Shown: positions 386 to 34,970 of the stretch, in pieces
How the letters are laid out: each line of letters opens with the position of its first letter
Numbering within the stretch: position 1 is the first letter of the stretch
Assembly (NCBI GenBank): GCA_035329685.1
Contig: DAOLGI010000006.1
Location: 1,570-41,921 of the forward strand
DNA: 40,352 nt
Origin: Acidimicrobiia bacterium
Lineage (GTDB): Bacteria; Actinomycetota; Acidimicrobiia; IMCC26256; JAGPDB01
Reading direction: 5' to 3'
Position numbers and translations under genes: made by a program
The notes under the pieces: model-generated
Told to the model about the DNA's origin: nothing
Database searches by the model: none
Seen by the model: the letters and a program-made list of their open reading frames with translations, nothing else

Positions 386-544
386 GTCATTCCGAGGCGT
401 TACCTCTCGTCATCCAGAGGGCTTTAGCCCGAATGATCTCCGCGCAGCCCTGTCATTCAGAGTGTAACGAAGAATCTCAACTTCAATGACCACTTCCATA
501 TTGAGATCCTTCGCTTAGTCGCTACGCTCCTGGCTCAGGATGAC
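386..544. repeat. Intergenic hairpin-repeat cluster A (3 forward units at 386, 409 and 452; linker aacttcaatgaccacttc; 1 long reverse unit ending 544)
   Basis: Units read directly: gtcattccgagg.., gtcatccagagggctttagcccgaatgatctc, gtcattcagagtgtaacgaagaatctc, and gagatccttcgcttagtcgctacgctcctggctcaggatgac. The same unit types recur at six other loci. Confidence 0.85.
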
Positions 545-572
545 TTTTTGGAAGGCGAAGCCTTCCAAAAAG

Positions 573-1571
573 TCACTTCTCTGGCGGCTGATCTCGGAGG
601 AATTTTTCCACTTCAGCAGCTAGCGCTTCCGCGCTCGGGAATTCTTCATCAGCAAGTTCGTATGTTTCAGCAAAATCTCCTGAGTCGTATCGCATTTCAA
701 GTTCCGCAACATATTCGACCGCCTGGTCGTCATCCGCAACTGCATCATTGACGTGATTCACCCAGTCGGCTGCTTGGCTAGCCAAGTCGCTGGTGTCAAA
801 GTCGACTCCCACTAACGCGCTAAATGTATTGAGTAATTCATTCATGGCTGCGGGTTGAGGACGTTGAGCAACATAGTGGGGAATCGTTGCCCACAAGGAT
901 GTAGAAGATAAATGATTCTGGGTTAAGTACTCGTGGAGGACTCCGATGATTCCTGTCGGGCCTTCATAGTTTGAGGGCAAAACTTCTAGCGCGTCTAAAC
1001 GCTCACGTTCTGATCCAATTCCGGTCAAACGAGTAGGTCGCGTGTGGGGAACCTCAGCCATCATGGAACCAAATGTAAAAATCTCTTCACATTTGAGCTC
1101 TGAGATGACCTGAAGAATGTCTACGCAGAAGGCCTTCCATCGATAGTTGGGCTCATGACTGAGCATCACGACAATGTCGCGATCACTGTCGTCGAGAGAG
1201 ATTCCGTAAATGCGATTTCGTGGCCACGATACTTGGCGAATTCCGCCTTCGCCCACAGAAATATTGGGTCGGACTGCTTGGTAATCGAAATAAGTATCGC
1301 CTTCTATTTCAGCGACAAGTTGGCTAGAAAATTTATCGACAATCCATGCAACAGAGTCGCTCGCCGCTTCTCCTGCATCGTTCCAGCCTTCAAAAGCTGC
1401 AACAAAAATGGGATTGCGCAGTTGAGGTCGGTGATACCAAATGATGGATTCTGAGTCTTCGATGCAGAAAATGCTAGATAATCCAACGTTAAATACTCGT
1501 ATTGACCGCAAAAAGGTAATTGATTTTAGGGCTGTTCCTTGCTCGAAGTGCAAGGTGCGGTCCTCCCCCAA
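573..1571 (-). CDS. PAC2 (proteasome assembly chaperone 2-like) family protein; start codon uncertain
   Basis: Contains the N-terminal PAC2 signature PIFVAAFEGWNDAGEAAS and has the typical ~300 aa length with an acidic C-terminal tail. The track start at 1571 is a TTG with no SD. No ATG lies upstream of the conserved motif, so the true start may be an internal TTG. Confidence 0.7.
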   Translation of the reverse strand: MGEDRTLHFEQGTALKSITFLRSIRVFNVGLSSIFCIEDSESIIWYHRPQLRNPIFVAAFEGWNDAGEAASDSVAWIVDKFSSQLVAEIEGDTYFDYQAVRPNISVGEGGIRQVSWPRNRIYGISLDDSDRDIVVMLSHEPNYRWKAFCVDILQVISELKCEEIFTFGSMMAEVPHTRPTRLTGIGSERERLDALEVLPSNYEGPTGIIGVLHEYLTQNHLSSTSLWATIPHYVAQRPQPAAMNELLNTFSALVGVDFDTSDLASQAADWVNHVNDAVADDDQAVEYVAELEMRYDSGDFAETYELADEEFPSAEALAAEVEKFLRDQPPEK

Positions 1572-1624
1572 ATTACTAAAGTTGCAGCTGTTCGTTCAGT
1601 TGTATCGCGTCTTGTGGTTTACAT

Positions 1625-1679
1625 AAAAAAAGAGGGCCGTGGGCGAAAACCATAGAGATGGTTTCCGCCCACGGCCCTC
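1625..1679 (-). terminator. Rho-independent terminator downstream of the whiB-like gene
   Basis: A 14-bp perfect stem, gagggccgtgggcg (1632-1645) / cgcccacggccctc (1666-1679), has a nested small hairpin aaaccat..atggttt in its loop. The plus-strand A-run at 1625-1631 is a U-run after the stem on the minus-strand transcript. The element lies 13 nt after the whiB stop. Confidence 0.7.
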
Positions 1680-1691
1680 CGAGAAAACTAG

Positions 1692-2030
1692 TTACGCAGG
1701 AGCGCTTTCACCACGAGGTGCAACTGGTGCTCCGTCGCCCTTCGGGTAACGAGCTACGCGACCGACAGGCATCTCAACACGGTATCCAGCAGCTGCACGG
1801 TCTTCTTCAGATTCGCCGCCCCAGAAACCATATTCGCGATGATTGCGTGCCCAATCGCGGCAGTCTTCCATCACGGGACACACTGCACAGATGGTGCGTG
1901 CCTTTGCTTCACGGCGTGCGCGAGCTTCCGGTCGTTCTCCCGGTGGTGGGAAAAAGAGTGATGTTTGGCCGCAACATGCTGCCTTATTGGTCCACGTCAG
2001 TGGTCCTGTGAATACGAGTGTAGATTCCAT
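1692..2030 (-). CDS. WhiB-family [4Fe-4S] transcriptional regulator (WhiB3-like spacing)
   Basis: Four Cys are arranged as C-X(n)-C-X2-C-X5-C (..AACCGQ..; CAVCPVMEDC). The segment FFPPPGERPEARARREAKARTIC is followed by the G(F/V)WGG turn (GFWGGESEEDR). Confidence 0.9.
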   Translation of the reverse strand: MESTLVFTGPLTWTNKAACCGQTSLFFPPPGERPEARARREAKARTICAVCPVMEDCRDWARNHREYGFWGGESEEDRAAAGYRVEMPVGRVARYPKGDGAPVAPRGESAPA

Positions 2031-2275
2031 TTTTTATTGCCTCCCGAGAGCCGTTTAGTATAGAACGTTTCGAAGATTTAAGCCAGAAAGGTTATGTCAG
2101 AAGGCCAATGGGGGAATTGGCCTCCCGACATGGATGGGGGAACAGAGTTATTCTGACACACATAGATCCATCCGTCAAACGTATATAATAGATAGGATAA
2201 ATCTCTATTTGTGATACTATATCTCGGAGAAATGTGTACATATATGTCGCTTTATGAAGTGAAAGTTGAATCAAC

Positions 2276-3148
2276 ATGGACCTAAGACAACTTGATGTGC
2301 TTGCAGCCATCCATCAGTCAGGCAGCTTTACCGCCGCTGCAGATTCTTTGGGAACTGTTCAAAGTAATGTATCGGCTCAGATTCAGGCGTTAGAGAAAGA
2401 ACTACACACAACACTTATTGTTCGCTCCCGACAAGGTGCTCGATTGACAGAACAAGGTCAAGTCGTTGTTGACCGTGCGAAACGTATTACGGCAGAGATT
2501 GATTCAATGCTTGTTGACCTATCGATGTTGCAAGGTCTCAAGCGCGGGCATGCTTCGATCGGTGTCATTGGAACAGCGAGTCGATGGATTGTTCCTTCGC
2601 TTGTTCAAGAAATGCGAGATTCTGCACCTGGCGTTACATTGCACATTACCGAAGCTCCATCCGAACGATTGTTGGCTGATGTTATTACACACGATCTTTC
2701 AGTTGCAGTTATCACTGAGCCTGTTGCTGATCCCCGTGTAGAAGTAACAACTTTATGTGATGAAGAAATAGTTGGTATTGCTCCCAAAGAATTTGGATTG
2801 GATTCTTCACCAAAAACCTTTGCTGAACTGTCTCAGTACCCTCACGTACTCACACCTAAAACAAATCCCCTCCGTACATGGATCGATAAGGCTGCGCGTA
2901 AAGAAGAAGTAACGCTCGATGTGCCAGTGAACTGTGAAGGTATTCGTTTGCTGCCCCGCTTAGTGCGTTCTGGGGTCGGTTGTTCGATATTGCCTTTAAC
3001 CGCGCTTCCTAATGAGCAAAGCGTTTTTACTGTTTACAAAATTGAAAACCTGCCACCGCGTCACTTGGCGTTGATCTCAGCCAAGGATGCTGTTTTGTCA
3101 ATGGCGGAGCGTGTGGTCAGTGATGTGATTATCCGGCTCACCCAGTAA
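2276..3148 (+). CDS. LysR-family transcriptional regulator
   Basis: The N-terminal wHTH reads MDLRQLDVLAAIHQSGSFTAAADSLGTVQSNVSAQIQALEKEL. At 290 aa it has the length expected for a C-terminal substrate-binding domain. Confidence 0.9.
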   Translation: MDLRQLDVLAAIHQSGSFTAAADSLGTVQSNVSAQIQALEKELHTTLIVRSRQGARLTEQGQVVVDRAKRITAEIDSMLVDLSMLQGLKRGHASIGVIGTASRWIVPSLVQEMRDSAPGVTLHITEAPSERLLADVITHDLSVAVITEPVADPRVEVTTLCDEEIVGIAPKEFGLDSSPKTFAELSQYPHVLTPKTNPLRTWIDKAARKEEVTLDVPVNCEGIRLLPRLVRSGVGCSILPLTALPNEQSVFTVYKIENLPPRHLALISAKDAVLSMAERVVSDVIIRLTQ

Positions 3149-3873
3149 GCCGCTCCAAATACTGCAAGCCCGCCGACTGCGTCGAGGATGTAATGGTTTG
3201 AAGTCACGATTACAACAAACAGGGTGCATATCGGGTAGCAACAGAGAAGAATTTTAAGCCACCTCTTTTTTATATAAGGGAAAAGCGAAAAGACGCACCA
3301 CGTAGACCAAACGATATGCACAGAAGGCATGGCTGCAAACTGATTCGAGATTGCTGCGAATTCTTCCGTATTAAATGACCAAAATGTGGGATATTTTGCG
3401 AGGGTATCGACATAGCCATAGTCTGAAGGCATCAAACGGGGTGGCATGAGGGGAAATGTGATGAAGCCCACGAGGGAAATGAGCGTTCCGGACACAATGG
3501 TTGTGCGCACATGTGAATAGCGTTTCGGATCTTTGGCGAAGACGTAGAACAAAGCAAAAAGCGTGACGATGAAGTGAAACGAGCCATAGAAATAATTACT
3601 CGCAATAATGATCCAATCAAAAGGGAGAAAATATGCGTGAATGGATCGTTCGATATACATGGAAAAGAAATGTTCCACACGAATAATGTGTTTTGCATTA
3701 GTGAACGCCTGCGACTTCGACGCATCTGTATTGTTTCGACCTAATGTATATATCGCATAAAGTGAACCAATGATGACAACTTCAACAAGAATTCGCCGAG
3801 GTTGTTCAGCGTTCTTTGCCTTATGAAAAATATTCATTTTTGTTGACTGAGGGATGTCGGGCATCAAATCCAA
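3061..3873 (-). CDS. PAP2-superfamily membrane phosphatase/phosphotransferase (PAP2_3 / inositolphosphoceramide-synthase-like type)
   Basis: Polytopic membrane protein with the motifs ..AAMPSVH.. and ..SNHYILDAVGG.. (PSxH and SxHxxxD of the PAP2 C2/C3 boxes). Its start codon abuts the stop of the upstream gene (3873/3874). Confidence 0.7.
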   Translation of the reverse strand: MDLMPDIPQSTKMNIFHKAKNAEQPRRILVEVVIIGSLYAIYTLGRNNTDASKSQAFTNAKHIIRVEHFFSMYIERSIHAYFLPFDWIIIASNYFYGSFHFIVTLFALFYVFAKDPKRYSHVRTTIVSGTLISLVGFITFPLMPPRLMPSDYGYVDTLAKYPTFWSFNTEEFAAISNQFAAMPSVHIVWSTWCVFSLFPYIKKRWLKILLCCYPICTLFVVIVTSNHYILDAVGGLAVFGAAYWVSRIITSLTTRSAIDKTASLAEINAK

Positions 3874-4470
3874 TTAACTTTCACGGATAGTGCAGACTTT
3901 AAATTTGCCATTCTCTTTGTCTAAGTTCACAATTGTCTTGTAAGTGGTTCCATTTTCCCGCTTGACTGTTCCTGTTACCTCAGCCTCTCCATTTGTTGTT
4001 GTAACATCTTTAAAATCAAAACTTACAATTCCTCGTTTGGTTTCTTCCTTGCTTTGGAATACAAAGTTGAATGATCCATCCTGCTTGAGGAATCGCTTAC
4101 ATGTAAGGGAATCCAAGTCTTTGCCATCCTGTGCTGCATGATAGAACTTATTTGTTGCATCAACTGCTGGTTTAGTTTCACTTACCACCCATAAGGTACA
4201 TCCACCTATACCGAGACCACAAAGGAAAAGAGGAACAACAATTGAGAGAGTGATCCAGAGCCAAAGCTTACTTTTCTTTTTTGGTTGTTCATTCGGTGTT
4301 CCAAGTGGTGGAGTGGGTACTTGAGTAGCGGAAGCCTCTGCGGGAAGGAATTCTTGTGGAGCATCAGATGTTGAAGCCGGTGGTTGAGTTGCTGGAGTAG
4401 ACTCACCTTCGGGAGCTGCCCATCCGGACTCCTCGTTGAGTGGATCGCCGTTGTTGATTTCGTCTGACAT
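3874..4470 (-). CDS. Single-pass membrane protein with a Pro/acid-rich cytoplasmic tail and a small extracytoplasmic beta-rich domain (DUF4878/NTF2-like guess)
   Basis: The internal ATG at 4470 is preceded by AAGGAG (cgaaggagatagaaATG). It is therefore preferred over the track start at 4521. The TM segment is LWLWITLSIVVPLFLCGLGIGG. The gene is co-directional and contiguous with the PAP2 gene. Confidence 0.65.
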   Translation of the reverse strand: MSDEINNGDPLNEESGWAAPEGESTPATQPPASTSDAPQEFLPAEASATQVPTPPLGTPNEQPKKKSKLWLWITLSIVVPLFLCGLGIGGCTLWVVSETKPAVDATNKFYHAAQDGKDLDSLTCKRFLKQDGSFNFVFQSKEETKRGIVSFDFKDVTTTNGEAEVTGTVKRENGTTYKTIVNLDKENGKFKVCTIRES

Positions 4471-4595
4471 TTCTATCTCCTTCGAACTTCCAGATAATTT
4501 AACATGCGCGATGTCAATCATGCGCCCGGTGCGCCTTGAATAACTTCAAGCAAAGTCGTCTATACACGTAGAATGGGTATCCACATGAGGACAAT

Positions 4596-5999
4596 ATGAA
4601 TATCGATCCCCAACTAATAAGTGAATCCTTGGATTATGCATCGAAAAAAGGTGCTTCATTTGCCGAAGCTTTTTGTGAACAGACCAGTACTGCTGCCACA
4701 TCGCTTGACGAAAAACGTATTGATTCGAGAACTACAGGCCTGAGCAAAGGCGTAGGTATTCGTGTTGTCAACAATTCTCGTGTGGGGTATGCCTATACGA
4801 GCACATTTACAACTGAGGGTCTGAGGGTCGCCGTGGATGCCGCATGTGCATCAGCGGGTGTCGGAGATGCCATATCTGCATCGGGCAAAGGTGTGGATGC
4901 ATCACTATTCGTGGACGTCAATAATCGGCAAGGATTTGATGCTCAAGAGTTTCGCGATCCCGCAACAATAACGGCAGAACGACTGCGAGAGATTGATGAT
5001 GTTGCACGTAGTTATCATGCCTCCATTGCTCAAGCATCAGCAACAATTGCTCAAAGTCAACGTGAAGTTCTCATTATGAATACTGCCGGAGTCAATGTTT
5101 CTGATTCGCAAACGCGTACTCGTTGCGTTGTTCAAACAATTGCAAAAAATTCTGATGGAATCCAAAGTGCACACGAAGCGCCAGGAAGAAGTATGGGGGC
5201 ACAGTATTTCGACATCTTTTCGGTCGATAACATCGCGCGTATCGCAGCCCAGCGTGCTGTGACTCTTCTTGATGCGCGACCAGCACCTAGTGGAAACCTC
5301 ACGGTGATTCTGAAAAAGGGTGCTGGTGGAGTTCTTTTCCATGAGGCTTGTGGCCATGGTCTCGAAGCTGACCACATTGACAAATCTCAGAGTGTTTTTG
5401 CTGGCAAGGTAGGGAAAAAAGTTGCTTCCCCTTTAGTGACGCTCGTCGACGACGGAACGATGGGTGATGAATGGGGGACATATCGATTTGATGACGAGGG
5501 AAATCCTGCACAAAAAAATACATTGATCAAAGATGGTGTTTTGAACGACTATATGTGGGATATTTTGCGTTCCACCAAGCTGGGCCATGGCGTTTCGGGC
5601 AACGGCCGTCGTGAGACATATGAATATCTTCCTATGGTTCGCATGACCAATACGTATCTTGAACCTGGATCAATGAGTGTTGACGACATCATTTCCTCTA
5701 CCGATTATGGAATATATTGTGTGGCTCTTGGCGGTGGGCAAGTAGATACGGTGACGGGTGAATATGTATTTGGAATTACCGAAGCGTACATGGTAGAAAA
5801 CGGAGTCATTACCTATCCCATTCGGGGTGCAACTCTCATTGGAAATGGTTTACAAACCATGCTTGATATCGACATGGTTGCAAACGATTTTGATACATGG
5901 ACAGGGACGTGTGGCAAGAATGGCCAGGGAGTCCCTGTGTCTTCGGGTCAACCGACATTGCGTGTTGCGAAGATGACTGTGGGAGGAACATCCACATGA
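4596..5999 (+). CDS. tldD: Metalloprotease TldD
   Basis: HEACGHGLEADH (HExxxH-type) motif, the C-terminal GGG..D..TG.....I.EAY.VENG block, and 467 aa length. It is paired with pmbA. Confidence 0.9.
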   Translation: MNIDPQLISESLDYASKKGASFAEAFCEQTSTAATSLDEKRIDSRTTGLSKGVGIRVVNNSRVGYAYTSTFTTEGLRVAVDAACASAGVGDAISASGKGVDASLFVDVNNRQGFDAQEFRDPATITAERLREIDDVARSYHASIAQASATIAQSQREVLIMNTAGVNVSDSQTRTRCVVQTIAKNSDGIQSAHEAPGRSMGAQYFDIFSVDNIARIAAQRAVTLLDARPAPSGNLTVILKKGAGGVLFHEACGHGLEADHIDKSQSVFAGKVGKKVASPLVTLVDDGTMGDEWGTYRFDDEGNPAQKNTLIKDGVLNDYMWDILRSTKLGHGVSGNGRRETYEYLPMVRMTNTYLEPGSMSVDDIISSTDYGIYCVALGGGQVDTVTGEYVFGITEAYMVENGVITYPIRGATLIGNGLQTMLDIDMVANDFDTWTGTCGKNGQGVPVSSGQPTLRVAKMTVGGTST

Positions 6000-7378
6000 G
6001 TTCAACAGCGCTGAAAAATATGCGTGACACGACAATGTTGCAAGAAGTAGCGCAACGTATTGCCGCACAAGCACAAGGAAACGAAGAAATTGAAGTTTAC
6101 GTTTCTCAAGGCGGTGATGTGGAAGTCACTGTTTACAGAGGCGAAGTAGAAAACATGACGACCGCCAATTCCACTGCTGTGGGAATTCGTGTTATTAACG
6201 ATCATCGTGAAGGAAGTGCTTGGGCAGAATCGCTGGATGAAGGTATTCTTCAGCAGACACTTAGCTTTGCGCGTGAGAACGCTTCGATTGCTGAACCTGA
6301 TGAGTTTGCGACGCTCGTCAAACCATCAGATATTGATGATGTCGAACCTGTTGTTCGCGACGGATGGGATGATTCGATCTTTGCTCTCTCGCTGGAAGAC
6401 AAGATTGCGCTTGCTCTAGAACTTGATCACAAAGCAAGCTCCTTTGACGAACGCATTAAAGATGTTCCCTCTGCCGATTATGAAGACGGATGGGGACACA
6501 GCGTCGTTGCAAACTCCCATGGAATTATGGTGACAAATTCATCGACTTCTGCAAGTTTGTCGGCATCTGTCATGCTGGGAGACGATGAACAGCTTGAATC
6601 AAGTGGATTTTCTTTTGGACGAGGAACAACAAATCTCAATATCGATGAAGTTATCTCAATGGCATTCTCCAGGGGACTTCGTTTGCTGGGAGGGACACAA
6701 CCCATTAGTGAAGCATTGCCTGTTATTTTAGATCCTCTTGTTGCTACACAATTTTTTGGAATTATTGCAGGCATGATGTCGGGAGGCGCCGTTGCAAAAG
6801 GTCGAGCCCTTCTTGCTGATCGTTTGGGCGACACAATTGGCCACTCGAACTTAACACTTATTGACGACCCTACACATGAAAAGGCCTTTTCGTCAGCAAC
6901 ATACGATGCAGAAGGAATGCCCACACGGAGAAATATCTTTATTGAGAATGGTGTGCTGCAACAGTTCGCTCACACCATGTATTCATCTCGGCGCTTAAAG
7001 ATGAAGCCCAATGCTTGTGCACGTCGGGGCGGTGTTGCGTCACGACCTGGAGCGGGTATGCGTGCTCTCTACGCACAAACCACCGGTGAAAGTGTTGAAG
7101 AAATCTTTGAGCGTGTAGGCGAAGCCGTGTATGTACAACATTTTCTTGGTGTTCACTCAGGGGTGAACGCGCTCTCGGGAGATTTTTCAGTGGGCGCGCA
7201 AGGCGTGTGGATCCGGGATGGTCATATGGCCGAAGCATTTAAGGAAGCAACGATTGCATCTGACCTGTTGACAATGTTGTCCCGTACAAGTGCTGTGGCA
7301 AACGATACATGGTGGTTGCCTGGTTCTGTTGTGGGCAACACAGTGTTAATTGACGAGATGGTGATGACCGGGAAGTGA
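5996..7378 (+). CDS. pmbA: Metalloprotease PmbA/TldE
   Basis: TldD/PmbA-family C-terminal block (GVNALSGDFSVGAQGVWIRDG). The preferred start, ATG 5996, overlaps the tldD stop in an ATGA arrangement. The track start at 5897 would overlap tldD by 100 nt. Confidence 0.85.
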   Translation: MSSTALKNMRDTTMLQEVAQRIAAQAQGNEEIEVYVSQGGDVEVTVYRGEVENMTTANSTAVGIRVINDHREGSAWAESLDEGILQQTLSFARENASIAEPDEFATLVKPSDIDDVEPVVRDGWDDSIFALSLEDKIALALELDHKASSFDERIKDVPSADYEDGWGHSVVANSHGIMVTNSSTSASLSASVMLGDDEQLESSGFSFGRGTTNLNIDEVISMAFSRGLRLLGGTQPISEALPVILDPLVATQFFGIIAGMMSGGAVAKGRALLADRLGDTIGHSNLTLIDDPTHEKAFSSATYDAEGMPTRRNIFIENGVLQQFAHTMYSSRRLKMKPNACARRGGVASRPGAGMRALYAQTTGESVEEIFERVGEAVYVQHFLGVHSGVNALSGDFSVGAQGVWIRDGHMAEAFKEATIASDLLTMLSRTSAVANDTWWLPGSVVGNTVLIDEMVMTGK

Positions 7379-7549
7379 TTTTCCAGGGTGGAACCCTGGA
7401 AAATCATCCTGAGCGAGCCAGGAGCGAAGCGACTAAGCGAGTCGAAGGATCTCGCCAAAGACACTCCGAACGTAAGCTCATCCTTCGCTCCGCGAAGATC
7501 CTTAGGGCTAAAGCCCTCAGGATGACATTTAAGGGTTTCACCCTAAAAT
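7378..7549. repeat. Composite hairpin-repeat element B, filling the whole pmbA/uppP convergent spacer
   Basis: The element is bounded by two related hairpins: attttccagggt-gga-accctggaaaat (7378-7404) and atttaagggt-ttc-accctaaaat (7527-7549). Inside are a long forward unit (tcatcctgagcgagccaggagcgaagcgactaagcgagtcgaaggatctc) and a reverse unit (gaagatccttagggctaaagccctcaggatgac). Both are near-identical to units in cluster A. Confidence 0.85.
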
Positions 7550-7550
7550 G

Positions 7551-8369
7551 TCAGTTAACAAACAGCCACAAAAAGATTCCAAGACCCGCAGCAACACGGT
7601 AGATCACAAATCCGGTGAACGATCGTGTGCGAACAATTTTGAGTAATCCGTAAACGGCAATCCATCCTGTAACTGCAGAAACAATGACACCGACGATCAT
7701 GGGAATAACTAATGATGAAGGAATTCCCTCGCCAGCAATCGTTTTTGTTCCAGTGAAAAGGGCTGCGCCAGCAACAATGGGAATGAGCATCAAAAAACTT
7801 AATCGTGCAGATGATTCGCGGGAAAAACCGCGGAGACGAAGTGCCGTCATTGTGATTCCGCTTCGGCTCACCCCCGGTTGCAAAGCAAGGGCCTGACTCG
7901 CTCCCGCGACGACAGCATCTTTTATACTAAAGCTCGTGTCGTTGCGATCTCCTTGAATGCGATCGCAGACAAACAATAGCAATCCAAAAATAATAAGCAT
8001 GCTCGCAATGAGTGCAGGCTTACCCAAATGTTCGGAAATAGTTTCTTCCAATAATGCACCTAACAAAGCGCCGGGAATGGATGTGACGACAAGTAACAAT
8101 CCAAGCTTGGCGTAGTCATCCATTTTCCGCGTGCGCAATCCGTTCCAGAGAGATAAAACAATACGACGAACGTCTTTATTGAGATAAGCAACTGCTCCAA
8201 TAAGAGTTCCGGCATGAAGTGCGACATCGAATGTTTTTTCTACACTGGGCGATAATTCTTCCCAGCCCAACAGCTGTGGAACTACTGCTAAGTGTCCGCT
8301 GGATGAAATCGGAAGAAATTCTGTGAGACCTTGAATGAGCCCAAGGATGATTGCATGGATAATGGGCAT
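7551..8369 (-). CDS. uppP: Undecaprenyl-diphosphate phosphatase
   Basis: BacA/UppP signature GLIQGLTEFLPISSSGHL, the later PGVSRSG motif, and about 8 TM segments over 272 aa. Confidence 0.92.
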   Translation of the reverse strand: MPIIHAIILGLIQGLTEFLPISSSGHLAVVPQLLGWEELSPSVEKTFDVALHAGTLIGAVAYLNKDVRRIVLSLWNGLRTRKMDDYAKLGLLLVVTSIPGALLGALLEETISEHLGKPALIASMLIIFGLLLFVCDRIQGDRNDTSFSIKDAVVAGASQALALQPGVSRSGITMTALRLRGFSRESSARLSFLMLIPIVAGAALFTGTKTIAGEGIPSSLVIPMIVGVIVSAVTGWIAVYGLLKIVRTRSFTGFVIYRVAAGLGIFLWLFVN

Positions 8370-8378
8370 CGCAATACA

Positions 8379-8993: not shown

Positions 8994-9044
8994 CTGCGCA
9001 TACTATCCATATATACAATATATTACAAGATTGAGCTAGATCAA

Positions 9045-9398: not shown

Positions 9399-9511
9399 AG
9401 CTACACAATTTAGCGTGAAATGTCCCGTCATCCTTGAGTCAGCCCCTGTTATGCAGAACTCAGAATGACTTGGGGCACTCATATTGACGTCGAGGAAAGT
9501 ACAATCTAAAG

Positions 9512-11031: not shown

Positions 11032-11058
11032 CCTCTCGCGAGAGTAAGATTATCTTCT

Positions 11059-12754: not shown

Positions 12755-12800
12755 AATCACGCGTATGCTAAACCCCCTGCTTGGTACCATAGATATTCAT

Positions 12801-12874: not shown

Positions 12875-12877
12875 CTT

Positions 12878-15572: not shown

Positions 15573-16333
15573 CTTTGCAGGGTCCAACCTTGCAACAGGG
15601 TCCAACCGCGCAACAAGGTTGGACCCTGTCTGTGGAAAAGTTTATGTCTCATAACAGAGAATGCGTCTTGCGTATTCTCTTGTCTTCATATCTTGAGACA
15701 GATCTTCAAGGTTCGACAAGTAACTAGCTGAATTACCGCAAGCTCCAAGAATGCATTCTGGTTTGATCCAATCTGCATTATGGGTTCCTAAATAATATGG
15801 AAGACTGGAATAACTCCATTCTTTATAATTGTTTGGATTGAGATGGATGTAACAGGAAATATACCGAAAATATTCGTCATTGTTAATTAATGATGCTCGA
15901 AAATTATCTTGAAATAGGTGACCTACTCGGCCGTGTTTTTTATTAAAATACAAGGAATAACTAGTTGATAATGACCGAAAGAGTCTGGTTATTCCTGTAG
16001 AAGTTTTTTGATGAAGAAGTAAATGAAAGTGATTCGGCATTAAACAATATGCATTGAGATTTATAATGTCATGATAATTAGATAAAACTCTGCCGTATAT
16101 ATCTTTTTCGGGTTCATGTGATAAAAGCCTTTTAAGAAGATTGAGAAAGACTCGGTAGTCTTCATCGTCTCTAAAAATGGGCTCTTTATTTACTCCACGG
16201 TTATATGCATGGTAGTAACTATCTTCTGCGTATATTTTTCGAACGTTTCTTCCTGGCATGGTTGGTAGATTACTTCGAGGGTACGACATTCTTTGCAGGG
16301 TCCAACCTCGCAACAAGGTTGGACCCTGCAAAG
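15573..16333 (-). mobile_element. RAYT-like unit: IS200-like HUH transposase gene bracketed by REP-like palindromes
   Basis: Left flank: ctttgcagggtccaacc half-site (15573-15589) plus a perfect 12-bp-stem hairpin, cagggtccaacc-gcgcaacaa-ggttggaccctg (15596-15628). Right flank: a perfect 17-bp-stem hairpin, ctttgcagggtccaacc-tcgcaacaa-ggttggaccctgcaaag (16291-16333). Confidence 0.8.
15642..16289 (-). CDS. REP-associated tyrosine transposase-like (IS200/IS605 Y1 HUH family, COG1943-like)
   Basis: HUH motif in CLMPNHFHLLL and the catalytic-Tyr region RYISCYIHLNP. The N-terminal Y.H...RG and the G.LFQ..F block are also present. The start was moved to ATG 16289, because the first 14 codons of the track ORF are simply the flanking palindrome. 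Confidence 0.85.
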   Translation of the reverse strand: MSYPRSNLPTMPGRNVRKIYAEDSYYHAYNRGVNKEPIFRDDEDYRVFLNLLKRLLSHEPEKDIYGRVLSNYHDIINLNAYCLMPNHFHLLLHQKTSTGITRLFRSLSTSYSLYFNKKHGRVGHLFQDNFRASLINNDEYFRYISCYIHLNPNNYKEWSYSSLPYYLGTHNADWIKPECILGACGNSASYLSNLEDLSQDMKTREYARRILCYET

Positions 16334-16375
16334 ACGCATTGGCGTAAAGAGGACGTTGCGTATTAACCTTAGGAA

Positions 16376-24015: not shown

Positions 24016-24023
24016 TAACCATG

Positions 24024-24130
24024 TCATCCTGTGCACACAACAGTCATTCTGAGTGAAACGAAGAATCTCCGCGCAGCGGATGTATGGGAATTGCGGGGGG
24101 AGATTCCTCGGCTAAAGCTTCGGAATGACT
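24024..24130. repeat. Hairpin-repeat locus C
   Basis: A partial unit gtcatcctgtg (24024), a forward unit gtcattctgagtgaaacgaagaatctc (24044-24070), a spacer ccgcgcagcgg.., and a reverse unit gagattcctcggctaaagcttcggaatgac (24101-24130). Confidence 0.85.
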
Positions 24131-24151
24131 CAAGAAAAAGAGAATACGAAA

Positions 24152-24238
24152 TTATCGGCGTCCGCAAAGCGGTTTCTTGCCGTGGTTTGCTTTTTTGCGC
24201 TTAGCGTTGAGCTTGCGCTTGTTCGTTTTCCTACTCAT
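24152..24238 (-). CDS. Candidate 50S ribosomal protein bL37 (28 aa micro-gene)
   Basis: The internal ATG of the track ORF gives MSRKTNKRKLNAKRKKANHGKKPLCGRR. The basic peptide with the KANHGK(K/R)P core resembles mycobacterial bL37 as I recall it. No clear SD is present. Confidence 0.5.
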   Translation of the reverse strand: MSRKTNKRKLNAKRKKANHGKKPLCGRR

Positions 24239-24332
24239 AAGGTCGCCCAGCTTAGCGTAAGACCAGGTAGCGCTGTCCAAGCGAAGGAATCGGACCCTTG
24301 TCCAGAGTACATAAATATGACAGAGTGATGGG

Positions 24333-24626: not shown

Positions 24627-24640
24627 GCTCGCACACAACT

Positions 24641-25492: not shown

Positions 25493-25530
25493 GCGACTCT
25501 TGCGCTCTCATGACGCTATTCTTATAAGCC

Positions 25531-27045: not shown

Positions 27046-27059
27046 GACCTGGCCTTATA

Positions 27060-27857: not shown

Positions 27858-27864
27858 CGGATTG

Positions 27865-27966
27865 TGCAGGGTCCTTCTACGTCATCCAGAGTGAAACGAA
27901 GGATCTCCGCGCAGCGGTGTACGAGATTTTCTGCGGCGGCGAGATTCCTCGCAGGCTCGGAATGAC
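27865..27966. repeat. Hairpin-repeat locus D (with a half-copy of the RAYT-flank palindrome)
   Basis: tgcagggtcc (27865-27874) equals the RAYT-flank core. It is followed by a forward unit gtcatccagagtgaaacgaaggatctc (27881-27907), a spacer ccgcgcagcgg.., and a reverse unit gagattcctcgcaggctcggaatgac (27941-27966). Confidence 0.85.
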
Positions 27967-28025
27967 TGTTTGGCAGCCTGTTATGTGGGATAAATCGGAC
28001 ATATCTGCCTTGAAAGTGGATTCGA

Positions 28026-29288: not shown

Positions 29289-29292
29289 GATA

Positions 29293-30168: not shown

Positions 30169-31055
30169 AAGCATCTATCCAGGCACCAGCGAAACTTACG
30201 TTGACGTTGCGAATTCTTGATTCGACAGACGATGGTTATCACAACCTTGATGCACTGACCGTTTTTCTTCCTGATCTTTCAGATGTTATTGAAATATTTG
30301 ATAGGTCAACGCATGACTCATTCTTGACAATTTCTCATACCGATGGTTCCGTATCGGATCTTCCACGAGACAATTCAAATCTCGTGGTGAGAGCTTGGGA
30401 AAAATACTGTGAGCATGTGAATGTAGATGAGTATGATTTAACCAATATTGGTTTTCATCTTGTGAAATTAATTCCCCACGCTGGTGGTCTTGGTGGAGGA
30501 TCTGCCGATGCGGCGGCAACATTACGTCTGCTCAACCGACTGTGTGATGATGAATTGTCTACAACTGATCTTCTTTCCTTGGCAACCGAACTGGGCAGCG
30601 ATGTCGCTGCTTGCATCTATTCTCACGCTGTACGGATGCAGGGTCGGGGAGATCGCGTCGATCCTTTAGGCGAGCCCGATTTCCATATGAGCGCCTGTCT
30701 GGTGACTCCACAGGTTCACTGTCCTACGCCTGATGTTTATCGACGTTACGACGAAATTGGGCGTCCTGTCGATGAAGGGGTTGCGGCTCCCGATACGATG
30801 AAAGCACACACTCAAACATTACATAACGATCTTGCTTTGGCCGCGTATGACCTTTTCCCCGAGTTGGTTGCTTTCAAAAAGCAACTGGAAGATATTACTG
30901 GGGTTCCTTTTATGCTCGCAGGCTCAGGTTCAACCTTTTTTACTTTGGGTGATCAAGAAACAACCGATTCAATCCATCGTTTATTGTTAAGCGAACTCAC
31001 GGATGAAGAAGGTATGAGTAATCTTCGCCTCTGTGCGGTCAGTAGTTTGCGATGA
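30165..31055 (+). CDS. ispE: 4-diphosphocytidyl-2-C-methyl-D-erythritol kinase
   Basis: APAKLTLTLRIL...DGYHNLDA N-terminus, the GHMP-kinase loop IPHAGGLGGGSADAAA, and an ATGA overlap with the rsmA stop. Confidence 0.9.
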   Translation: MKASIQAPAKLTLTLRILDSTDDGYHNLDALTVFLPDLSDVIEIFDRSTHDSFLTISHTDGSVSDLPRDNSNLVVRAWEKYCEHVNVDEYDLTNIGFHLVKLIPHAGGLGGGSADAAATLRLLNRLCDDELSTTDLLSLATELGSDVAACIYSHAVRMQGRGDRVDPLGEPDFHMSACLVTPQVHCPTPDVYRRYDEIGRPVDEGVAAPDTMKAHTQTLHNDLALAAYDLFPELVAFKKQLEDITGVPFMLAGSGSTFFTLGDQETTDSIHRLLLSELTDEEGMSNLRLCAVSSLR

Positions 31056-31065
31056 TATCGGCCGT

Positions 31066-31133
31066 GTCATTCTAAGTGAAACGAAGAATCGGAGATCCTT
31101 TACTGCGTTCATGAGTATTACTCCCAGGATGAC
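31066..31133. repeat. Hairpin-repeat locus E
   Basis: A forward unit gtcattctaagtgaaacgaagaatc (31066-31090) directly abuts a reverse unit ggagatcct...ctcccaggatgac (31091-31133). Confidence 0.8.
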
Positions 31134-31165
31134 AGTACAGAACGCGAAAAGCAACAGGTAAAGAG

Positions 31166-31267
31166 CTACTTACCCTGCTGGCGACGTTGCCAACGAGTCT
31201 TTTTGAGAAGCTTCTTGTGCTTCTTCTTGCGCATGCGCTTGCGGCGTTTTTTGATAAGTGAACCCAT
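31166..31267 (-). CDS. 30S ribosomal protein bS22 (33 aa, actinobacteria-specific)
   Basis: The hand translation [33 protein letters not shown] is near-identical in pattern and length to mycobacterial bS22 ([21 protein letters not shown]..). It is below the ORF-track size cutoff. Confidence 0.8.
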   Translation of the reverse strand: [33 protein letters not shown]

Positions 31268-31398
31268 ATGAAGGGTTTAAAACTAGTGGTCCGAGTGCTC
31301 TGAACGCCAACCCAAGCTCAAATTGAAATCACTATGGCAAAGCAATCGTATATCCGTGCATAGCCGCAGTCCTCAATCCGCTAAAATCTCACAGTCTT

Positions 31399-31473
31399 TC
31401 GGGGATGGTGTAATTGGCAACACACCAGTTTTTGGTACTGGCATTCAAGGTTCGAGTCCTTGTCCCCGAGCCA
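31399..31473 (+). tRNA. tRNA-Gln (anticodon UUG), CCA encoded
   Basis: Folded by hand. Acceptor TCGGGGA/TCCCCGA (U1:A72) with discriminator G then CCA. D arm GTGT/ACAC; anticodon stem CCAGT/ACTGG with loop TTTTGGT; T arm CAAGG-TTCGAGT-CCTTG. The anticodon arm closely resembles E. coli tRNA-Gln. Confidence 0.92.
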
Positions 31474-31481
31474 CGCGGTCT

Positions 31482-32096
31482 TTAGAAAAGGCCCGATATA
31501 AATTTTACAACAACGGTTCCAAAACCAATCGAGAGCACAGCCCCTAAAGCTCCGATTGCGGCTCCCGCCATCACGATGACAACATCACCGAAAAGAACCC
31601 CTAGAGATATGCCCAGGACGCCTAGCGCAGGGAGGGTATCAAGACCGGAAAATGGTGGAGCGAAAAAAGCAACCAAGGATAGAGCAAAAACTATTATTCC
31701 AAAGCATGTTCGCGAAATTCGACTTTCAATAAATTTTGACATGCGTGGTCTAGATCTTTTCTCTACCTTCTTAATTTTTTTTATGAGGTAAGGGAGGGTT
31801 TTGGTTTGCATTTTCGAGCCAAGTTTTTTACTTCGCCATCTTTTGGGTAACCAAATAGTCCTTCTTTGAGCGATAAGCTGTAGCGCTAGGAACATCGCAA
31901 AAGCTTCGAAAATGTTCGTAAGCCCACCTGTTGGCAGGGGCAGCGCGGAGGCTGACAGAAGTAGGAAAAACATCATAGCAAAACTTTTTTCTCCGAAAAC
32001 TTCTTCTAGTCCAGCAATTGTTTTCTTCTGGTCGCTGTCCAACCATTCTTGAAGTTCATCGCTAAAGTCTTTTATAGGTTTTTCTTTGTCATCCAT
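31482..32096 (-). CDS. ExoD-like membrane protein (exopolysaccharide synthesis ExoD family)
   Basis: Family-like pattern ..LLLSASALPLPTGGLTNIFEAFAMFLALQLI..RRTIWLPKRW.. followed by C-terminal TMs. Confidence 0.55.
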   Translation of the reverse strand: MDDKEKPIKDFSDELQEWLDSDQKKTIAGLEEVFGEKSFAMMFFLLLSASALPLPTGGLTNIFEAFAMFLALQLIAQRRTIWLPKRWRSKKLGSKMQTKTLPYLIKKIKKVEKRSRPRMSKFIESRISRTCFGIIVFALSLVAFFAPPFSGLDTLPALGVLGISLGVLFGDVVIVMAGAAIGALGAVLSIGFGTVVVKFISGLF

Positions 32097-32222
32097 TATT
32101 TGTAACCATCTTTATGGGGGCATGGGAGCATTACTCTAATCTAGTATCGAATATCTATGAATTTAGGGTGAAAGTCAAGGAAGAGCGAGCCACTGCAAGC
32201 ACAAGTTTGTTTAAAAATGTAG

Positions 32223-33545
32223 TTATGCTCTTTTGCAGAGTAACTCAAAATATTTGGTGCTTCCAAAAGGGATTTTCTGTTTGACGATTCCGTGTGCTCC
32301 GAGAGCCGTTGCCATCATGATGGTGGGGATGCCAAATGCCTCATTGATCTCATCCATTGTTTCTGTGATGTGTTCTTCTTTATTAAGGTCCCGAAAGAGT
32401 TCTAATTGAGTGGACTCTCCATCTAATGGAGACAGGTGATAGCAGGTAATACTCATCATTTGAATCATTCGGTCACGAGGGCGCTGATCAAAGAGCAGCA
32501 TGGCATTTTCATAAACGCTACGATCGCTAAAAAACGGTTTGGGAAACAAGTGACGCTTGTACCATCCGCCACCTCCATGAAAGCTTAAGTACACATATAC
32601 TCCTCGTGCACGCATTTCGTTATGGCGAAGTTTGCGAGCAGCGGTGTAGCACAGATACGACAGTCTTTTTTTCAGATCTCGTTCATCAATCGTTTTCACG
32701 TCGAGAACAAATTGTTTGCCGACTATTCCGAGGTTGGTTTCGACGTCATCGACTTCGTACCCGCGGAGGCGTTGATGCCAGTGCACGCCAATAATGCTTT
32801 CAAAAACATTGCGACGCAGGGTTATCAACGGAGCATTAAGGAAATCGATCGGAGTCATGATGCCACGTTTGTTCAAACGCGCTTCAAAACGATGAGCAAT
32901 TCCGGGAAGGTCGGTGAGTTCAAGGGTCGCATATTTTTCGTGAAGGTTTTTGTGGTCAAGGACGGTCAGGCCATCGGGCTTGTCAAAACCTGCAGCAAGT
33001 TTTGCAAGAAATCGATTAGTCGAAATTCCAATGTTGCATTTCATCCAACATCCGAGGTCTTGTCTCAGACGAGCTTTGATTTCATGACCAATTTCTTCGA
33101 GGGGTCGGGTGTTGACGGATTCGCGTGTCCCATGAAAATCGATCACTCCTTCATCGATGCTTTTCATTACGACGTGTGGTGAATAACTCTTCATGATGGC
33201 CATGAGCTTTTCATAGGCGTGATGATATTTCGGCGGATCGGTTTCGAGAACAATGAGATCGGGGATAAGGGCCTTGACCTCGTCGTAGCGCATGCCCACT
33301 TTGGCTCCCTGTACCTTGGCTTCGTAGCTCAGTGCGATCATGCAGCAGTGAGGAGTGATTCGATTGGTGACGCCCAGAGACTTGCCGCGCAGGTGGGGGT
33401 GTGCTTGTTGCTCTATGGTCGCAAAACAGCTGTTGAGGTCGACGTGCATGATCTGAGACTCTTCAGTATTAAGAGCGAGAGGGACCGCAGAATCTAAGAG
33501 TTGCCCGTTCTTTTGCATAGCAAACATATGTTCGTATAGTATCAA
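32223..33545 (-). CDS. Y-family (DinB/UmuC-like) translesion DNA polymerase
   Basis: MHVDLNSCFATIEQQAHPHLRGKSLGV (catalytic Asp, D-x-N/D-x-F-F/A-x-x-E), then SIDEGVIDF (second acidic motif), little-finger region and C-terminal MDEINEAFG block. Candidate starts are 33545, 33527 and 33518. Confidence 0.85.
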   Translation of the reverse strand: MILYEHMFAMQKNGQLLDSAVPLALNTEESQIMHVDLNSCFATIEQQAHPHLRGKSLGVTNRITPHCCMIALSYEAKVQGAKVGMRYDEVKALIPDLIVLETDPPKYHHAYEKLMAIMKSYSPHVVMKSIDEGVIDFHGTRESVNTRPLEEIGHEIKARLRQDLGCWMKCNIGISTNRFLAKLAAGFDKPDGLTVLDHKNLHEKYATLELTDLPGIAHRFEARLNKRGIMTPIDFLNAPLITLRRNVFESIIGVHWHQRLRGYEVDDVETNLGIVGKQFVLDVKTIDERDLKKRLSYLCYTAARKLRHNEMRARGVYVYLSFHGGGGWYKRHLFPKPFFSDRSVYENAMLLFDQRPRDRMIQMMSITCYHLSPLDGESTQLELFRDLNKEEHITETMDEINEAFGIPTIMMATALGAHGIVKQKIPFGSTKYFELLCKRA

Positions 33546-33584
33546 CTACTTACGACAAACACAAAATAGGTTTGAGTTGAATGC

Positions 33585-33896
33585 TTATTCCACAATCATG
33601 GTAGACACCAGCGTCCATGTAAGGCTCTCGGCATCGAACTCTATTCTGTAATCAGCTAATCCATCGGTCATATCGAAAACGTGAATCATCCGGTTACCTT
33701 GACTCGTGGGGTGGCGAAAACCGAACTCGGTGAATTCAATCGTGCGACCTTTGTGTTTAATTTTACGTGGCACGCAGATTTGTTGCATGTCACCGCTATC
33801 GGCAAACACACACATGACTTCAATGCGTTCACCTACGGATTCAATATCAGGCATGAGCTGAGTATAAGTCTGGGGTACGACACTCTGCAATGTCAT
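33585..33896 (-). CDS. Small hypothetical protein upstream of, and co-directional with, the Y-family polymerase
   Basis: ORF only. The first 11 codons of the track ORF are repeat sequence, so ATG 33896 or ATG 33854 is more likely. It ends 39 nt before the polymerase start. No S24/UmuD motif was seen. Confidence 0.45.
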   Translation of the reverse strand: MTLQSVVPQTYTQLMPDIESVGERIEVMCVFADSGDMQQICVPRKIKHKGRTIEFTEFGFRHPTSQGNRMIHVFDMTDGLADYRIEFDAESLTWTLVSTMIVE

Positions 33897-33975
33897 CCAG
33901 AGGCTACAGCCGAAGGATCTCAATTTCAATGACCACTTCTGCGCGGAGATTCCTCGGCTGAAGCCTCGGAATGAC
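33892..33975. repeat. Hairpin-repeat locus F (in a divergent promoter region)
   Basis: A forward unit gtcatccagaggctacagccgaaggatctc (33892-33921), the linker aatttcaatgaccacttc (the same linker as in cluster A), then tgcgcggagattcctcggctgaagcctcggaatgac (to 33975). Confidence 0.85.
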
Positions 33976-33990
33976 GTTTCTGAACGTTTG

Positions 33991-34027
33991 CTGAAAGAAA
34001 TTTCTTGATTCTTTCAGTCAAGAATCA
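33991..34027. promoter_or_regulatory. Two overlapping, mutually exclusive hairpins in the divergent intergenic region
   Basis: ctgaaagaa(33991-33999)/ttctttcag(34009-34017) and tgattctt(34006-34013)/aagaatca(34020-34027) share bases 34009-34013. Confidence 0.3.
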
Positions 34028-34071
34028 GGTCCACTTTTTATTCTTACATTGTTCCCGTTGAAAGGAGAACC

Positions 34072-34830
34072 ATGAAAAACAGAAAGATAACCACAACAAT
34101 TGCCGCATCAGCTCTTGCCTTGACCTCCGTCATCGGATTAGGTGCAGCTGCTTTTGCTGCTGATTCAGATGGATCGACAACAAAATCCAAAGCCCCTACC
34201 GCTGCAAAGATTGCTCAGCACCAAGCGCAGCGCCAAGAGAAGCTGGAAGAAAAACTCACCACAGCTGTCAAAGATGGAAAAATTACGGAAGCGCAGAAAA
34301 CTGCGATTCTTAATTTCTTTGAAGAGAACAAGCCCAGTCATGATGCCGACGCAACCAAGGAAGAGCGCAAAGCTGCACGAGAAGCGTTTAAGGAAAAGGT
34401 CGAAGCGTTTGCCGAGGCAAACAACATTGACACTGACGTTCTCAAGCCTCAAGGCGGGCCTGGTGGCCCCGGCGGGCGCGGCGGCAAAGAAGGACGTACA
34501 CCTCCTACGAAGGAAGAGCGCACTGCAAAACTGACCGAAAGATTAGATGCAGCAGTCACGGCCGGAACAATTACAGAAGCACAAAAAGATAGTGTGCTGG
34601 ATTTTGTTTCCAGTCAAGCTGAACCTAACAAGGATGCAACTGAGGAAGAGCGAAAGTCTGAACACGAAGCTCGCAAAGCTGCCTTCGAATCCTTTGCAGA
34701 AGATAACGGTATTCCTACCGATCTCTTAAAGCCACCTGCCGGCAAGGGTGGTCCCGGTGGACAAGGTGGTCCTCAGGGTCGAGGTGGCCCACAAGGTCAG
34801 GGAACACAAAGCAGCTCAACTGCAAAATAA
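34072..34830 (+). CDS. Secreted helical protein with an internal duplication and Gly-rich (GGPGG) spacers; YckD/DUF2680- or Spy/CpxP-like guess
   Basis: Signal peptide (..ALTSVIGLGAAAFA). Two collinear ~95 aa modules: (V/T)..G(K/T)ITEAQK..(I/V)L(N/D)F.....KEERK...EA(F/R)K...E(A/S)FAE.N(N/G)I.TD(V/L)LKP, each followed by G/P/Q-rich runs. SD AAAGGAG upstream. Confidence 0.7.
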   Translation: MKNRKITTTIAASALALTSVIGLGAAAFAADSDGSTTKSKAPTAAKIAQHQAQRQEKLEEKLTTAVKDGKITEAQKTAILNFFEENKPSHDADATKEERKAAREAFKEKVEAFAEANNIDTDVLKPQGGPGGPGGRGGKEGRTPPTKEERTAKLTERLDAAVTAGTITEAQKDSVLDFVSSQAEPNKDATEEERKSEHEARKAAFESFAEDNGIPTDLLKPPAGKGGPGGQGGPQGRGGPQGQGTQSSSTAK

Positions 34831-34844
34831 TATCCCCCCACAAA

Positions 34845-34882
34845 AATGGTTGGTACGCGCAATGCATACCGACCATTTTTTA
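34845..34882 (+). terminator. Rho-independent terminator
   Basis: An 11-bp stem, aatggttggta (34845-34855) / taccgaccatt (34867-34877), with one G.U pair, followed by a T-run. Confidence 0.7.
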
Positions 34883-34920
34883 TTGCACGGTTATTCCGAG
34901 AGAGCCGATTGAAAGGAGTA

Positions 34921-34970
34921 GTCATTCCGAGCCTGCGAGGAATCCAGATCCTTCGCAAGCTCAGGATGAA
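34921..34970. repeat. Hairpin-repeat locus G
   Basis: gtcattccgagcctgcgaggaatc is the exact complement type of the reverse unit at locus D. It is followed by cagatccttcgcaagctcaggatgaa (a degenerate reverse unit). A further degenerate unit lies at ~34891. Confidence 0.8.

Follow-up and report, generated by a model that had tools for sequence, protein, structure and literature searches.

Intergenic hairpin doublets in an Acidimicrobiia genome as probable relatives of the SRM repeats of Ssn nucleases

The closest described counterpart of the repeats considered here is the Neisseria transformation sequence (NTS; CGTCATTCCCGCGMAVGCGGGAATCYRG), an oriented extension of the dRS3 repeat which is recognised by SsnA, a 94-aa single-domain GIY-YIG nuclease that binds it only as single-stranded DNA (Chenal et al., Nat Commun 2025, PMC11893778). 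The subject of the present analysis is a family of short intergenic hairpins in a 40,352-nt stretch of an Acidimicrobiia metagenome-assembled genome (MAG; assembly GCA_035329685.1, contig DAOLGI010000006.1, positions 1,570 to 41,921), referred to as a whole as the window, where an original prediction made from the sequence had reported at least 16 units at seven loci, A to G. With a probability of roughly 0.8, these repeats are Ssn-related-motif (SRM) units related to NTS/dRS3, arranged as ssn cassettes that lack the gene and probably spreading with the Ssn nuclease supplied in trans, all taken together as one joint reading.

SsnA cleaves a few nucleotides 5' of the NTS. Binding depends most on the C that directly follows the palindrome and cutting on the three bases in front of the palindrome, and RNA is not bound (PMC11893778). 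Binding and cutting restricted to single-stranded DNA and to the forward strand have been shown for four Ssn enzymes, and in Neisseria and Wolbachia the repeats are bound, and cut next to, by an Ssn nuclease (PMC11893778). An SRM lies near 71% of the ssnA homologues and on both sides of 42%, and an ssn homologue is present in 81% of the genomes with more than 200 SRMs (PMC11893778). The NTS-ssnA-NTS layout is reminiscent of insertion sequences and of the repetitive extragenic palindromic (REP) elements associated with RAYT, although an insertion-sequence-like origin was offered only as a hypothesis and mobility was not shown (PMC11893778).

The Neisseria NTS/dRS3, CGTCATTCCCGCG..CGCGGGAATC, and the window unit share the frame GTCAT-ATTCC...GGAAT-C. 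Both are hairpins of 20-50 nt with many intergenic copies, and in other genomes the unit class of the window brackets a gene for a ~90-aa single-domain GIY-YIG protein, as in the Neisseria SsnA system. However, the stem of the window unit is broken by a conserved GAG/CGA pair of G.A mismatches, the host is a member of the Acidimicrobiia, and the units form gene-less doublets with their heads pointing outwards (head-out), whereas the units nearest to gonococcal ssnA are head-in. Genome papers on N. meningitidis reportedly describe NIMEs as arrays of spacer segments bounded by dRS3; the window is similar in that multi-unit clusters carry linkers recurring at other loci, such as the linker of loci A and F, but the linker sequences are unrelated and the window clusters are much smaller (2-4 units). 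Elements of the IS200/IS605 group have both ends cut on one strand by a covalently acting Y1 enzyme. They share with the present repeats a small size and hairpin ends read in single-stranded form ('peel and paste', a comparison made in PMC11893778), but inverted units would place the nicks on opposite strands with no covalent intermediate. REP, BIME and REPIN elements with their RAYT partners are likewise extragenic palindromes recognised as single strands, with inverted doublets, an enzyme gene bracketed by the repeats and lineage-specific expansion, an analogy also drawn previously (PMC11893778), yet their enzyme is an HUH/Y1 transposase and not a GIY-YIG hydrolase, and their 5' signature is different. 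Overall, this is the known Ssn/SRM system with a new sequence class and a host phylum beyond the published pattern, and not a new kind of system.

Hairpin repeats of the window

The window unit reads GTC-ATYC-N-GAG-(variable mini-hairpin)-CGA-N-GRAT-C(TC), often followed by CGCGCAGC. Opposition of GAG and CGA yields G.A, A.G and G-C, that is, an adjacent G.A mismatch pair closed by a G-C pair, and the apical part is free in sequence and usually self-complementary (TGAAA, CCTG, GC-TTCA-GC, GGC-TTTA-GCC). The unit had been described before as a hairpin with a 5-bp stem; the hairpin stands, but the conserved core is larger, and half of the copies in the window have a mismatch at N:N.

That the family is real is evident from the GTCATYCNRRG motif, which matches 14 times when both strands are counted, where 0.88 matches are expected (100 dinucleotide shuffles, maximum 3). 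Thirteen of these fall inside the seven loci already reported; the last (9459-9469, minus) lies within an eighth locus, H (9427-9469), that had been missed, a minimal outward-facing pair of heads in the divergent spacer between a Zn-ribbon gene, with its true start at ~9404, and plsY. A covariance model (R1) built from 38 units flanking Ssn-type GIY-YIG genes in unrelated metagenomes, with no window units used, recovers 14 full units in the window at E<=0.005, all in loci A to G, with a clear gap to the next match (E=0.27), and the similarity is thus no artefact of alignment within the window. GTCAT and ATC do not vary among the aligned training units, and 12 of the 14 window units have both; the other two, 7404-7454 (ATCAT head) and 34944-34969 (TTCAT head), fit R1 only from position 4. 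Addition of the truncated or degenerate copies (386-408, 409-448, 7476-7501, 24023-24040 and locus H) brings the total to ~19 units, consistent with the 'at least 16' first counted. In the following list, L004 and L207 are loci of the sister genome GCA_964391505.1 (TatD 92% identical) and L006, like L007 mentioned later, comes from more distant relatives (77% and 75%, respectively).

386-408, plus: locus A, truncated unit GTCATTCCGAGGCGTTACCTCTC with its 3' arm deleted (direct reading, head match)
409-448, plus: locus A, degenerate unit with the GGGCTTTAGCCC apical hairpin and the CGCGCAGC extension (weak R1 match, 9.5 bits; 88% complementary to 7487-7526)
452-478, plus: locus A, full unit GTCATTCAGAGTGTAACGAAGAATCTC (R1 28.9 bits, E 6.7e-5)
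503-544, minus: locus A, long-loop unit closing the head-out cluster (R1 30.8 bits, E 2.3e-5; 96% complementary to 7415-7440)
7403-7454, plus: locus B, long-loop unit with head ATCATCC (R1 23.4 bits, E 0.0014; kept in sister L207)
7476-7501, plus: locus B, degenerate unit-like hairpin CTCATCCTTCGCTCCGCGAAGATCC (direct reading; model match not significant)
7494-7528, minus: locus B, unit with the GGGCTTTAGCCC apical hairpin (R1 23.7 bits, E 0.0012; another unit in the sister)
9427-9469, no strand assigned: locus H, head/head pair GTCATCC..GAATGAC in a divergent spacer (head match; altered right half in the sister)
24023-24040, plus: locus C, orphan head fragment GTCATCCTG (direct reading)
24043-24069, plus: locus C, full unit GTCATTCTGAGTGAAACGAAGAATCTC (R1 40 bits, E 1.4e-7)
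24100-24129, minus: locus C, partner unit (R1 25.2 bits; whole doublet absent in sister L004)
27881-27907, plus: locus D, full unit with the CGCGCAGC extension (R1 26.2 bits; orthologous copy in L004)
27941-27966, minus: locus D, partner unit (R1 32.1 bits; 25/25 match to 34920-34944)
31066-31090, plus: locus E, unit (R1 24.1 bits; orthologous copy in L004, absent in L006)
31092-31133, minus: locus E, degenerate partner with a long loop (R1 21 bits, E 0.005; shorter in the sister)
33892-33921, plus: locus F, unit (R1 24.7 bits; doublet absent in the sister, which has another palindrome there)
33946-33975, minus: locus F, partner unit (R1 29.9 bits; as a whole, the doublet folds into a single long DNA hairpin, z = -4.6)
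34921-34945, plus: locus G, unit (R1 27.3 bits; doublet absent in the sister, gene-order breakpoint)
34946-34969, minus: locus G, partner unit with head TTCATCC (R1 21.1 bits; doublet z = -3.9)

Every locus is head-out, with at least one plus-strand unit to the left of a single minus-strand unit, so that the GTCAT heads form the outer ends of each doublet or cluster of 50-110 nt. A repeat finder bore out the sub-variants said to be shared between distant loci: the long variant (96% complementary) and the GGGCTTTAGCCC variant (88%) common to A and B, the linker common to A and F (78%), and the CGCGCAGC extension in A, C, D and F. The doublet architecture, the GAG/CGA motif, the eighth locus and the link to Ssn are additions to that account.

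The window is 89.7% coding in a greedy map of open reading frames (ORFs), and all eight loci are clear of real genes, so the intergenic placement claimed for every copy holds and the repeats are confined to the ~10% that is non-coding. Five loci lie between convergent genes, two in divergent spacers and one between tandem genes; the same distribution had been given for the first seven, with one divergent locus, and is correct provided that the bL37-like (24152-24238, minus) and bS22-like (31166-31267, minus) genes are counted, since loci C and E are convergent only then. Locus F overlaps an ORF only in appearance, through an over-extended reading frame. The sister annotates the orthologue as 89 aa from a conserved ATG equivalent to position 33854, and the start codon that the repeat was thought to supply at 33896 is therefore unused.

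Compensatory changes are found in the stem. Across 218 distinct units, the three unconstrained inner stem positions pair in 95-100% of cases, against 64-90% in permutations, with the pairs alternating between T-A, C-G and G-C; the hairpin stem is under selection. When single-stranded, a doublet can form either two small hairpins or one long one. Compared with shuffled sequences, the doublets of F (z = -4.6) and G (z = -3.9) fold markedly well and those of B and C marginally, although folding is weak evidence here, as the energy model may under-credit adjacent G.A mismatches, and covariation is the better test.

Association with ssn genes and distribution across phyla

In other genomes, the same units are found around small nuclease genes. 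At one locus (L038) a head-out pair exactly encloses a small ORF, and at another (L064) such an ORF is preceded by a unit-like sequence and followed by a unit head; both encode a single-domain GIY-YIG protein (PF01541). A search with the L038 protein gave 81 homologues in which the NPxWxDL motif is followed by 15 residues or more, and in 58 of them this C-terminal tail fits peptides expected from translated units (..DPSLRSG, ..LGMT.., ..ARDD.., VIPNEVRD..). In a set of 80 metagenome ssn loci chosen only by protein similarity to the domain alignment A1, a plus-strand head occurs within 150 nt upstream in 45, a minus-strand head within 220 nt downstream in 46, and heads on both sides in 39, where a background of 0.47 heads per kb leads to an expectation of ~3 per class. 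The usual cassette is ~0.4-0.45 kb long and consists of a unit, a gene for a ~90-aa single-domain GIY-YIG protein (ssn) and an inverted unit. Plasmids of Planktothrix, Spirosoma and Rhizobium also carry ssn flanked by units of the GAG/CGA class.

The A1 profile aligns with the 94-aa gonococcal SsnA orthologue over 86 columns (hhalign; probability 99.8%, E 2.5e-30, 48% identity), and Y6, Y17 and E64, the residues mutated in the published work (PMC11893778), are conserved in both. This full-length alignment identifies the genes bracketed by this unit class as Ssn. An assignment as YhbQ/UPF0213-like is imprecise; the profile is only weakly matched by the solved UPF0213 structures 1zg2 (E 3e-10) and 1ywl (E 4e-7), and NCBIfam holds no model for the bracketed family. 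Literature searches for GIY-YIG proteins with REP or selfish elements, or for COG2827, YhbQ or UPF0213, returned nothing relevant, and searches by unit sequence strings returned only unrelated primer matches. PLSDB lists two 2.17-Mb N. gonorrhoeae chromosomes as plasmids, one of which gave the SsnA orthologue. Judged by layout and sequence, the head-out doublets and clusters of the window are ssn cassettes without the gene.

The units are not confined to the window. A scan of species-representative genomes with GTCATYCNGAG-N(3-30)-CGANGRATCTC returned at least 119 stretches; the matches listed include Chloroflexota, Acidobacteriota, Bacillota, Bacteroidota, Nitrospirota, Verrucomicrobiota, Planctomycetota and Gemmatimonadota, as well as candidate phyla radiation lineages, several classes of Pseudomonadota and one Nanoarchaeota MAG. 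Among these listed matches, the commonest form of the unit is GTCATYCTGAGCGAAGCGAAGRATCTC, and neighbouring head-out pairs show a spacing peak at 60-100 nt (48 of 82) that is lacking in head-in pairs, which indicates that the doublet is the normal form of the element everywhere and not a peculiarity of the window.

The window unit at 24043-24069 (GTCATTCTGAGTGAAACGAAGAATCTC) is identical over 27/27 nt to the plus-strand unit on plasmid p1 of Planktothrix agardhii (NZ_LR882964.1; L210 43-230 and 684-780), where doublets flank the ssn gene WP_083616022.1. The GTCATTCTGAGTGAAACGAAGAATCTC loop variant was further seen in a nearly identical unit of a Bacteroidales MAG (L047) and directly 5' of an ssn ORF on a soil contig (L146).

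Variations on the doublet were seen in two phyla. In Acidobacteriota (L016, L027, L033, L090, L099, L103) doublets are nested in an outer inverted repeat, ACAGGCTGCGGAAAAA ... TTTTTCCGCAGCCTGT, which suggests a larger composite palindromic element. A Nitrospirales locus (L015 3387-4114) has a long tandem array of ~21-nt units with GGATGAC between two unit heads, reading ..AGMTEGR.. in translation.

Turnover between relatives and competing explanations

Over the same genes, R1 finds 14 units in the window and 5 in the sister, and none in either of the 77% and 75% relatives. Comparison with the spacers of the sister, which the earlier work had proposed, gave the following picture, with loci A, C, F and G unique to the window.

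Locus A: a 159-nt cluster in a 192-nt spacer in the window; absent in the sister, with a 15-nt spacer
Locus B: present in both, with the right-hand unit replaced in the sister
Locus H: present in both, with a different right half in the sister
Locus C: present in the window; a different palindrome at the spot in the sister
Locus D: present in both, with few substitutions
Locus E: present in both, with a shorter second unit in the sister
Locus F: present in the window; a different palindrome at the spot in the sister
Locus G: present in the window; absent in the sister, at a gene-order breakpoint

The assignment of doublet G to a rearrangement breakpoint follows from gene order (window 34830-38750 against L004 17911-20798), as the NHL-repeat gene comes next in the sister but lies beyond a sigma-factor block in the window. 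Wherever a window doublet is missing in the sister, the whole spacer is either non-homologous or holds another palindrome.

The mechanism proposed here combines published steps with conjecture. When the DNA becomes single-stranded, the unit would fold and be bound by Ssn, which would nick a few nucleotides 5' of the unit, as shown elsewhere; in a head-out doublet the two nicks would thus fall on opposite strands, each just beyond one end. The doublets would then proliferate and be turned over in the spacers, with Ssn probably acting in trans, much as REPINs depend on RAYT. A bolder version, in which head-out SRM doublets are the replicating unit of a non-autonomous, phylum-crossing element driven by a GIY-YIG single-stranded DNA nuclease, is put forward tentatively and at somewhat below even odds; the crossing of phyla is proposed because of the 27-nt unit shared by the Acidimicrobiia MAG and the cyanobacterial plasmid and, nearly so, by the Bacteroidales MAG. 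If the repeats are indeed mobile, such an element may parallel REPIN/RAYT, with an enzyme of another fold.

Several observations weigh against the interpretation as Ssn-dependent cassettes. The published degenerate SRM sequence, HGTCWYN(0-2)YYVSBRHN(0-5)WNVSBRGN(0-2)RNCYNB, which is an operational search pattern and not a definition, has no match in the window (shuffles average 0.12) and matches just 9 of the 80 protein-selected ssn loci. The same pattern matches the Neisseria NTS and misses the commonest cross-phylum form, GTCATYCTGAGCGAAGCGAAGRATCTC, and about half of the stem-complementary hairpins in the 80 loci are of the GAG/CGA class. The window units are called a variant because the pattern fails on them, and on sequence grounds the GAG/CGA class is a major variant outside it. 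The four tested Ssn enzymes all acted on other unit classes (PMC11893778). Moreover, neither an ssn gene nor a remnant is present in the window or in 83 kb of the three related genomes (best E 0.1; L004, L207, L006, L007), so that a partner in the window organism has to be assumed. At the gonococcal ssnA (NZ_CP119140.1; L209 250-850) the nearest NTS copies are head-in, the upstream one on the minus and the downstream one on the plus strand, opposite to the metagenome sample and the Rhizobium plasmid. The nuclease is a hydrolytic enzyme without obvious rejoining chemistry for strand transfer. No clean pair of empty and filled sites and no target duplication were found between window and sister spacers, so the argument for mobility is one of presence and absence. 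Finally, in view of the mismatched N:N pairs and the truncation of several units, many window copies may be decaying relics.

This last point leads to an alternative in which an ssn cassette was once present and lost, leaving doublets that drift with neither function nor mobility. The lack of an ssn gene in ~123 kb of DNA from the lineage fits such a history, as do the damaged units. However, the window has nearly three times the unit number of the sister over the same genes, with four loci unique to it, and near-identical copies (25/25 between D and G, 94% between C and F) argue for recent copying; simple decay is accordingly held to be unlikely. Functions at the level of RNA were also considered originally. 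Units that mainly terminate or insulate transcription, or stabilise 3' ends, between convergent genes would be in line with the five convergent loci, just as the covariation of the hairpin would equally suit an RNA stem. Yet the units lack a T-tract and overlap only three weak terminator patterns (528-540, 7407-7423, 24068-24080), whereas clear terminator hairpins adjoin them at 545-572 and 34852-34870. Two loci are in divergent promoter spacers, and copies are gained or lost between sisters despite the same flanking genes. SsnA does not bind RNA (PMC11893778), and Rfam at gathering scores reports only two tRNAs in the window and nothing at the repeats. A mainly RNA-level role, whether in termination, transcription insulation or RNA stability, is thus very improbable, and of the functions first listed those supported are a REP/MITE-like (miniature inverted-repeat transposable element-like) nature and protein binding, since the SRM family flanks ssn and its copies are polymorphic between sisters.

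Mobile elements of other kinds can be compared on the same evidence. The extragenic inverted doublets and their folding into long hairpins resemble REP/BIME elements (REPINs) serviced by a RAYT tyrosine transposase, and a RAYT-like Y1 transposase gene is even present in the window (15642-16331, minus; PF01797, E 1.1e-8). This gene is, however, bracketed by another palindrome, CAGGGTCCAACC..GGTTGGACCCTG (15573-15630 and 16290-16334), so the GTCAT units are not its REPs; the sister keeps the gene yet has only 5 units, and across phyla the units bracket GIY-YIG genes. REPs typically begin with GTAG or GTGG, whereas the window units start with GTCA. Servicing by RAYT is, on this balance, regarded as highly improbable. 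Hardly any credence is given to classical MITEs derived from a DDE-type insertion sequence: the outer GTCATYC ends do act in the manner of terminal inverted repeats, and the length of 50-110 nt and the intergenic position would suit such elements, but no direct repeats or target-site duplications flank any of the eight loci, the gene-bearing form encodes a 90-aa GIY-YIG protein in place of a DDE transposase, and selection acts on the hairpin of each unit, beyond the ends. Among other candidates tried, a hammerhead ribozyme (suggested by the likeness to GAG-hairpin-CGAA) was rejected on the absence of the CUGANGA core, and integron attC sites and CRISPR repeats on their consensus and arrangement.

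Consequences and neighbouring features

For genome annotation, the identification of the unit class as SRM-type gives a name and a biochemically tested partner to a repeat scattered through the intergenic DNA of many phyla. The repeat is also the source of numerous spurious 'hypothetical proteins' and of unusual C-terminal tails in GIY-YIG genes. Since the published pattern misses the GAG/CGA class, published counts of SRM-bearing genomes are probably too low. Gene-less doublets that are gained, lost and swapped within spacers are also relevant to whether Ssn cassettes should be seen as mobile elements or as tools domesticated by the host; if the doublets do move, the presence/absence differences with the sister would be the first comparative evidence for it. 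Ssn enzymes are under development as site-specific cutters of single-stranded DNA, and the new, strongly conserved G.A-mismatch class is a concrete candidate specificity.

Other repeats accompany the units in this region. The RAYT-like gene is AT-rich and, with its bracketing hairpins (15573-16334), constitutes a second, unrelated hairpin-repeat system, kept in the sister (L207 1819-2478). Perfect hairpins with T-run/A-run flanks follow stop codons at 545-572, 7376-7405 and 7522-7551, and also at L004 7020-7085 and L006 ~6025-6050. They are of two types, TTTTCCAGGGT-GGA-ACCCTGGAAAA and TTTTTGGAAGGC-GAA-GCCTTCCAAAAA, and look like bidirectional terminators; their AGGGT..ACCCT core recalls the RAYT-flanking hairpins and has only 2 short copies in the window. 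In the sister (L004 14420-14590), a ~66-nt tandem repeat that is absent in the window follows tRNA-Gln, its copies containing GAGCGAAGGATGAGTGAC, which resembles a unit arm.

The gene order of the window includes tatD, an rpfB-like gene, ksgA and ispE, which in combination with a PAC2 protein indicates Actinomycetota. Acidimicrobiia MAGs supply the nearest named homologues of TatD and UppP, and an ENA metagenome contig matches the window. A secreted-looking 252-aa protein with no Pfam match is encoded at 34072-34830, with Gly/Pro/Gln-rich linkers and an internal duplication ~285 nt apart. The small basic proteins MSRKTNKRKLNAKRKKANHGKKPLCGRR and MGSLIKKRRKRMRKKKHKKLLKKTRWQRRQQGK, encoded on the minus strand at 24152-24238 and 31166-31267, would both be missed by ORF length cut-offs and are taken by us to resemble the actinobacterial ribosomal proteins bL37 and bS22.

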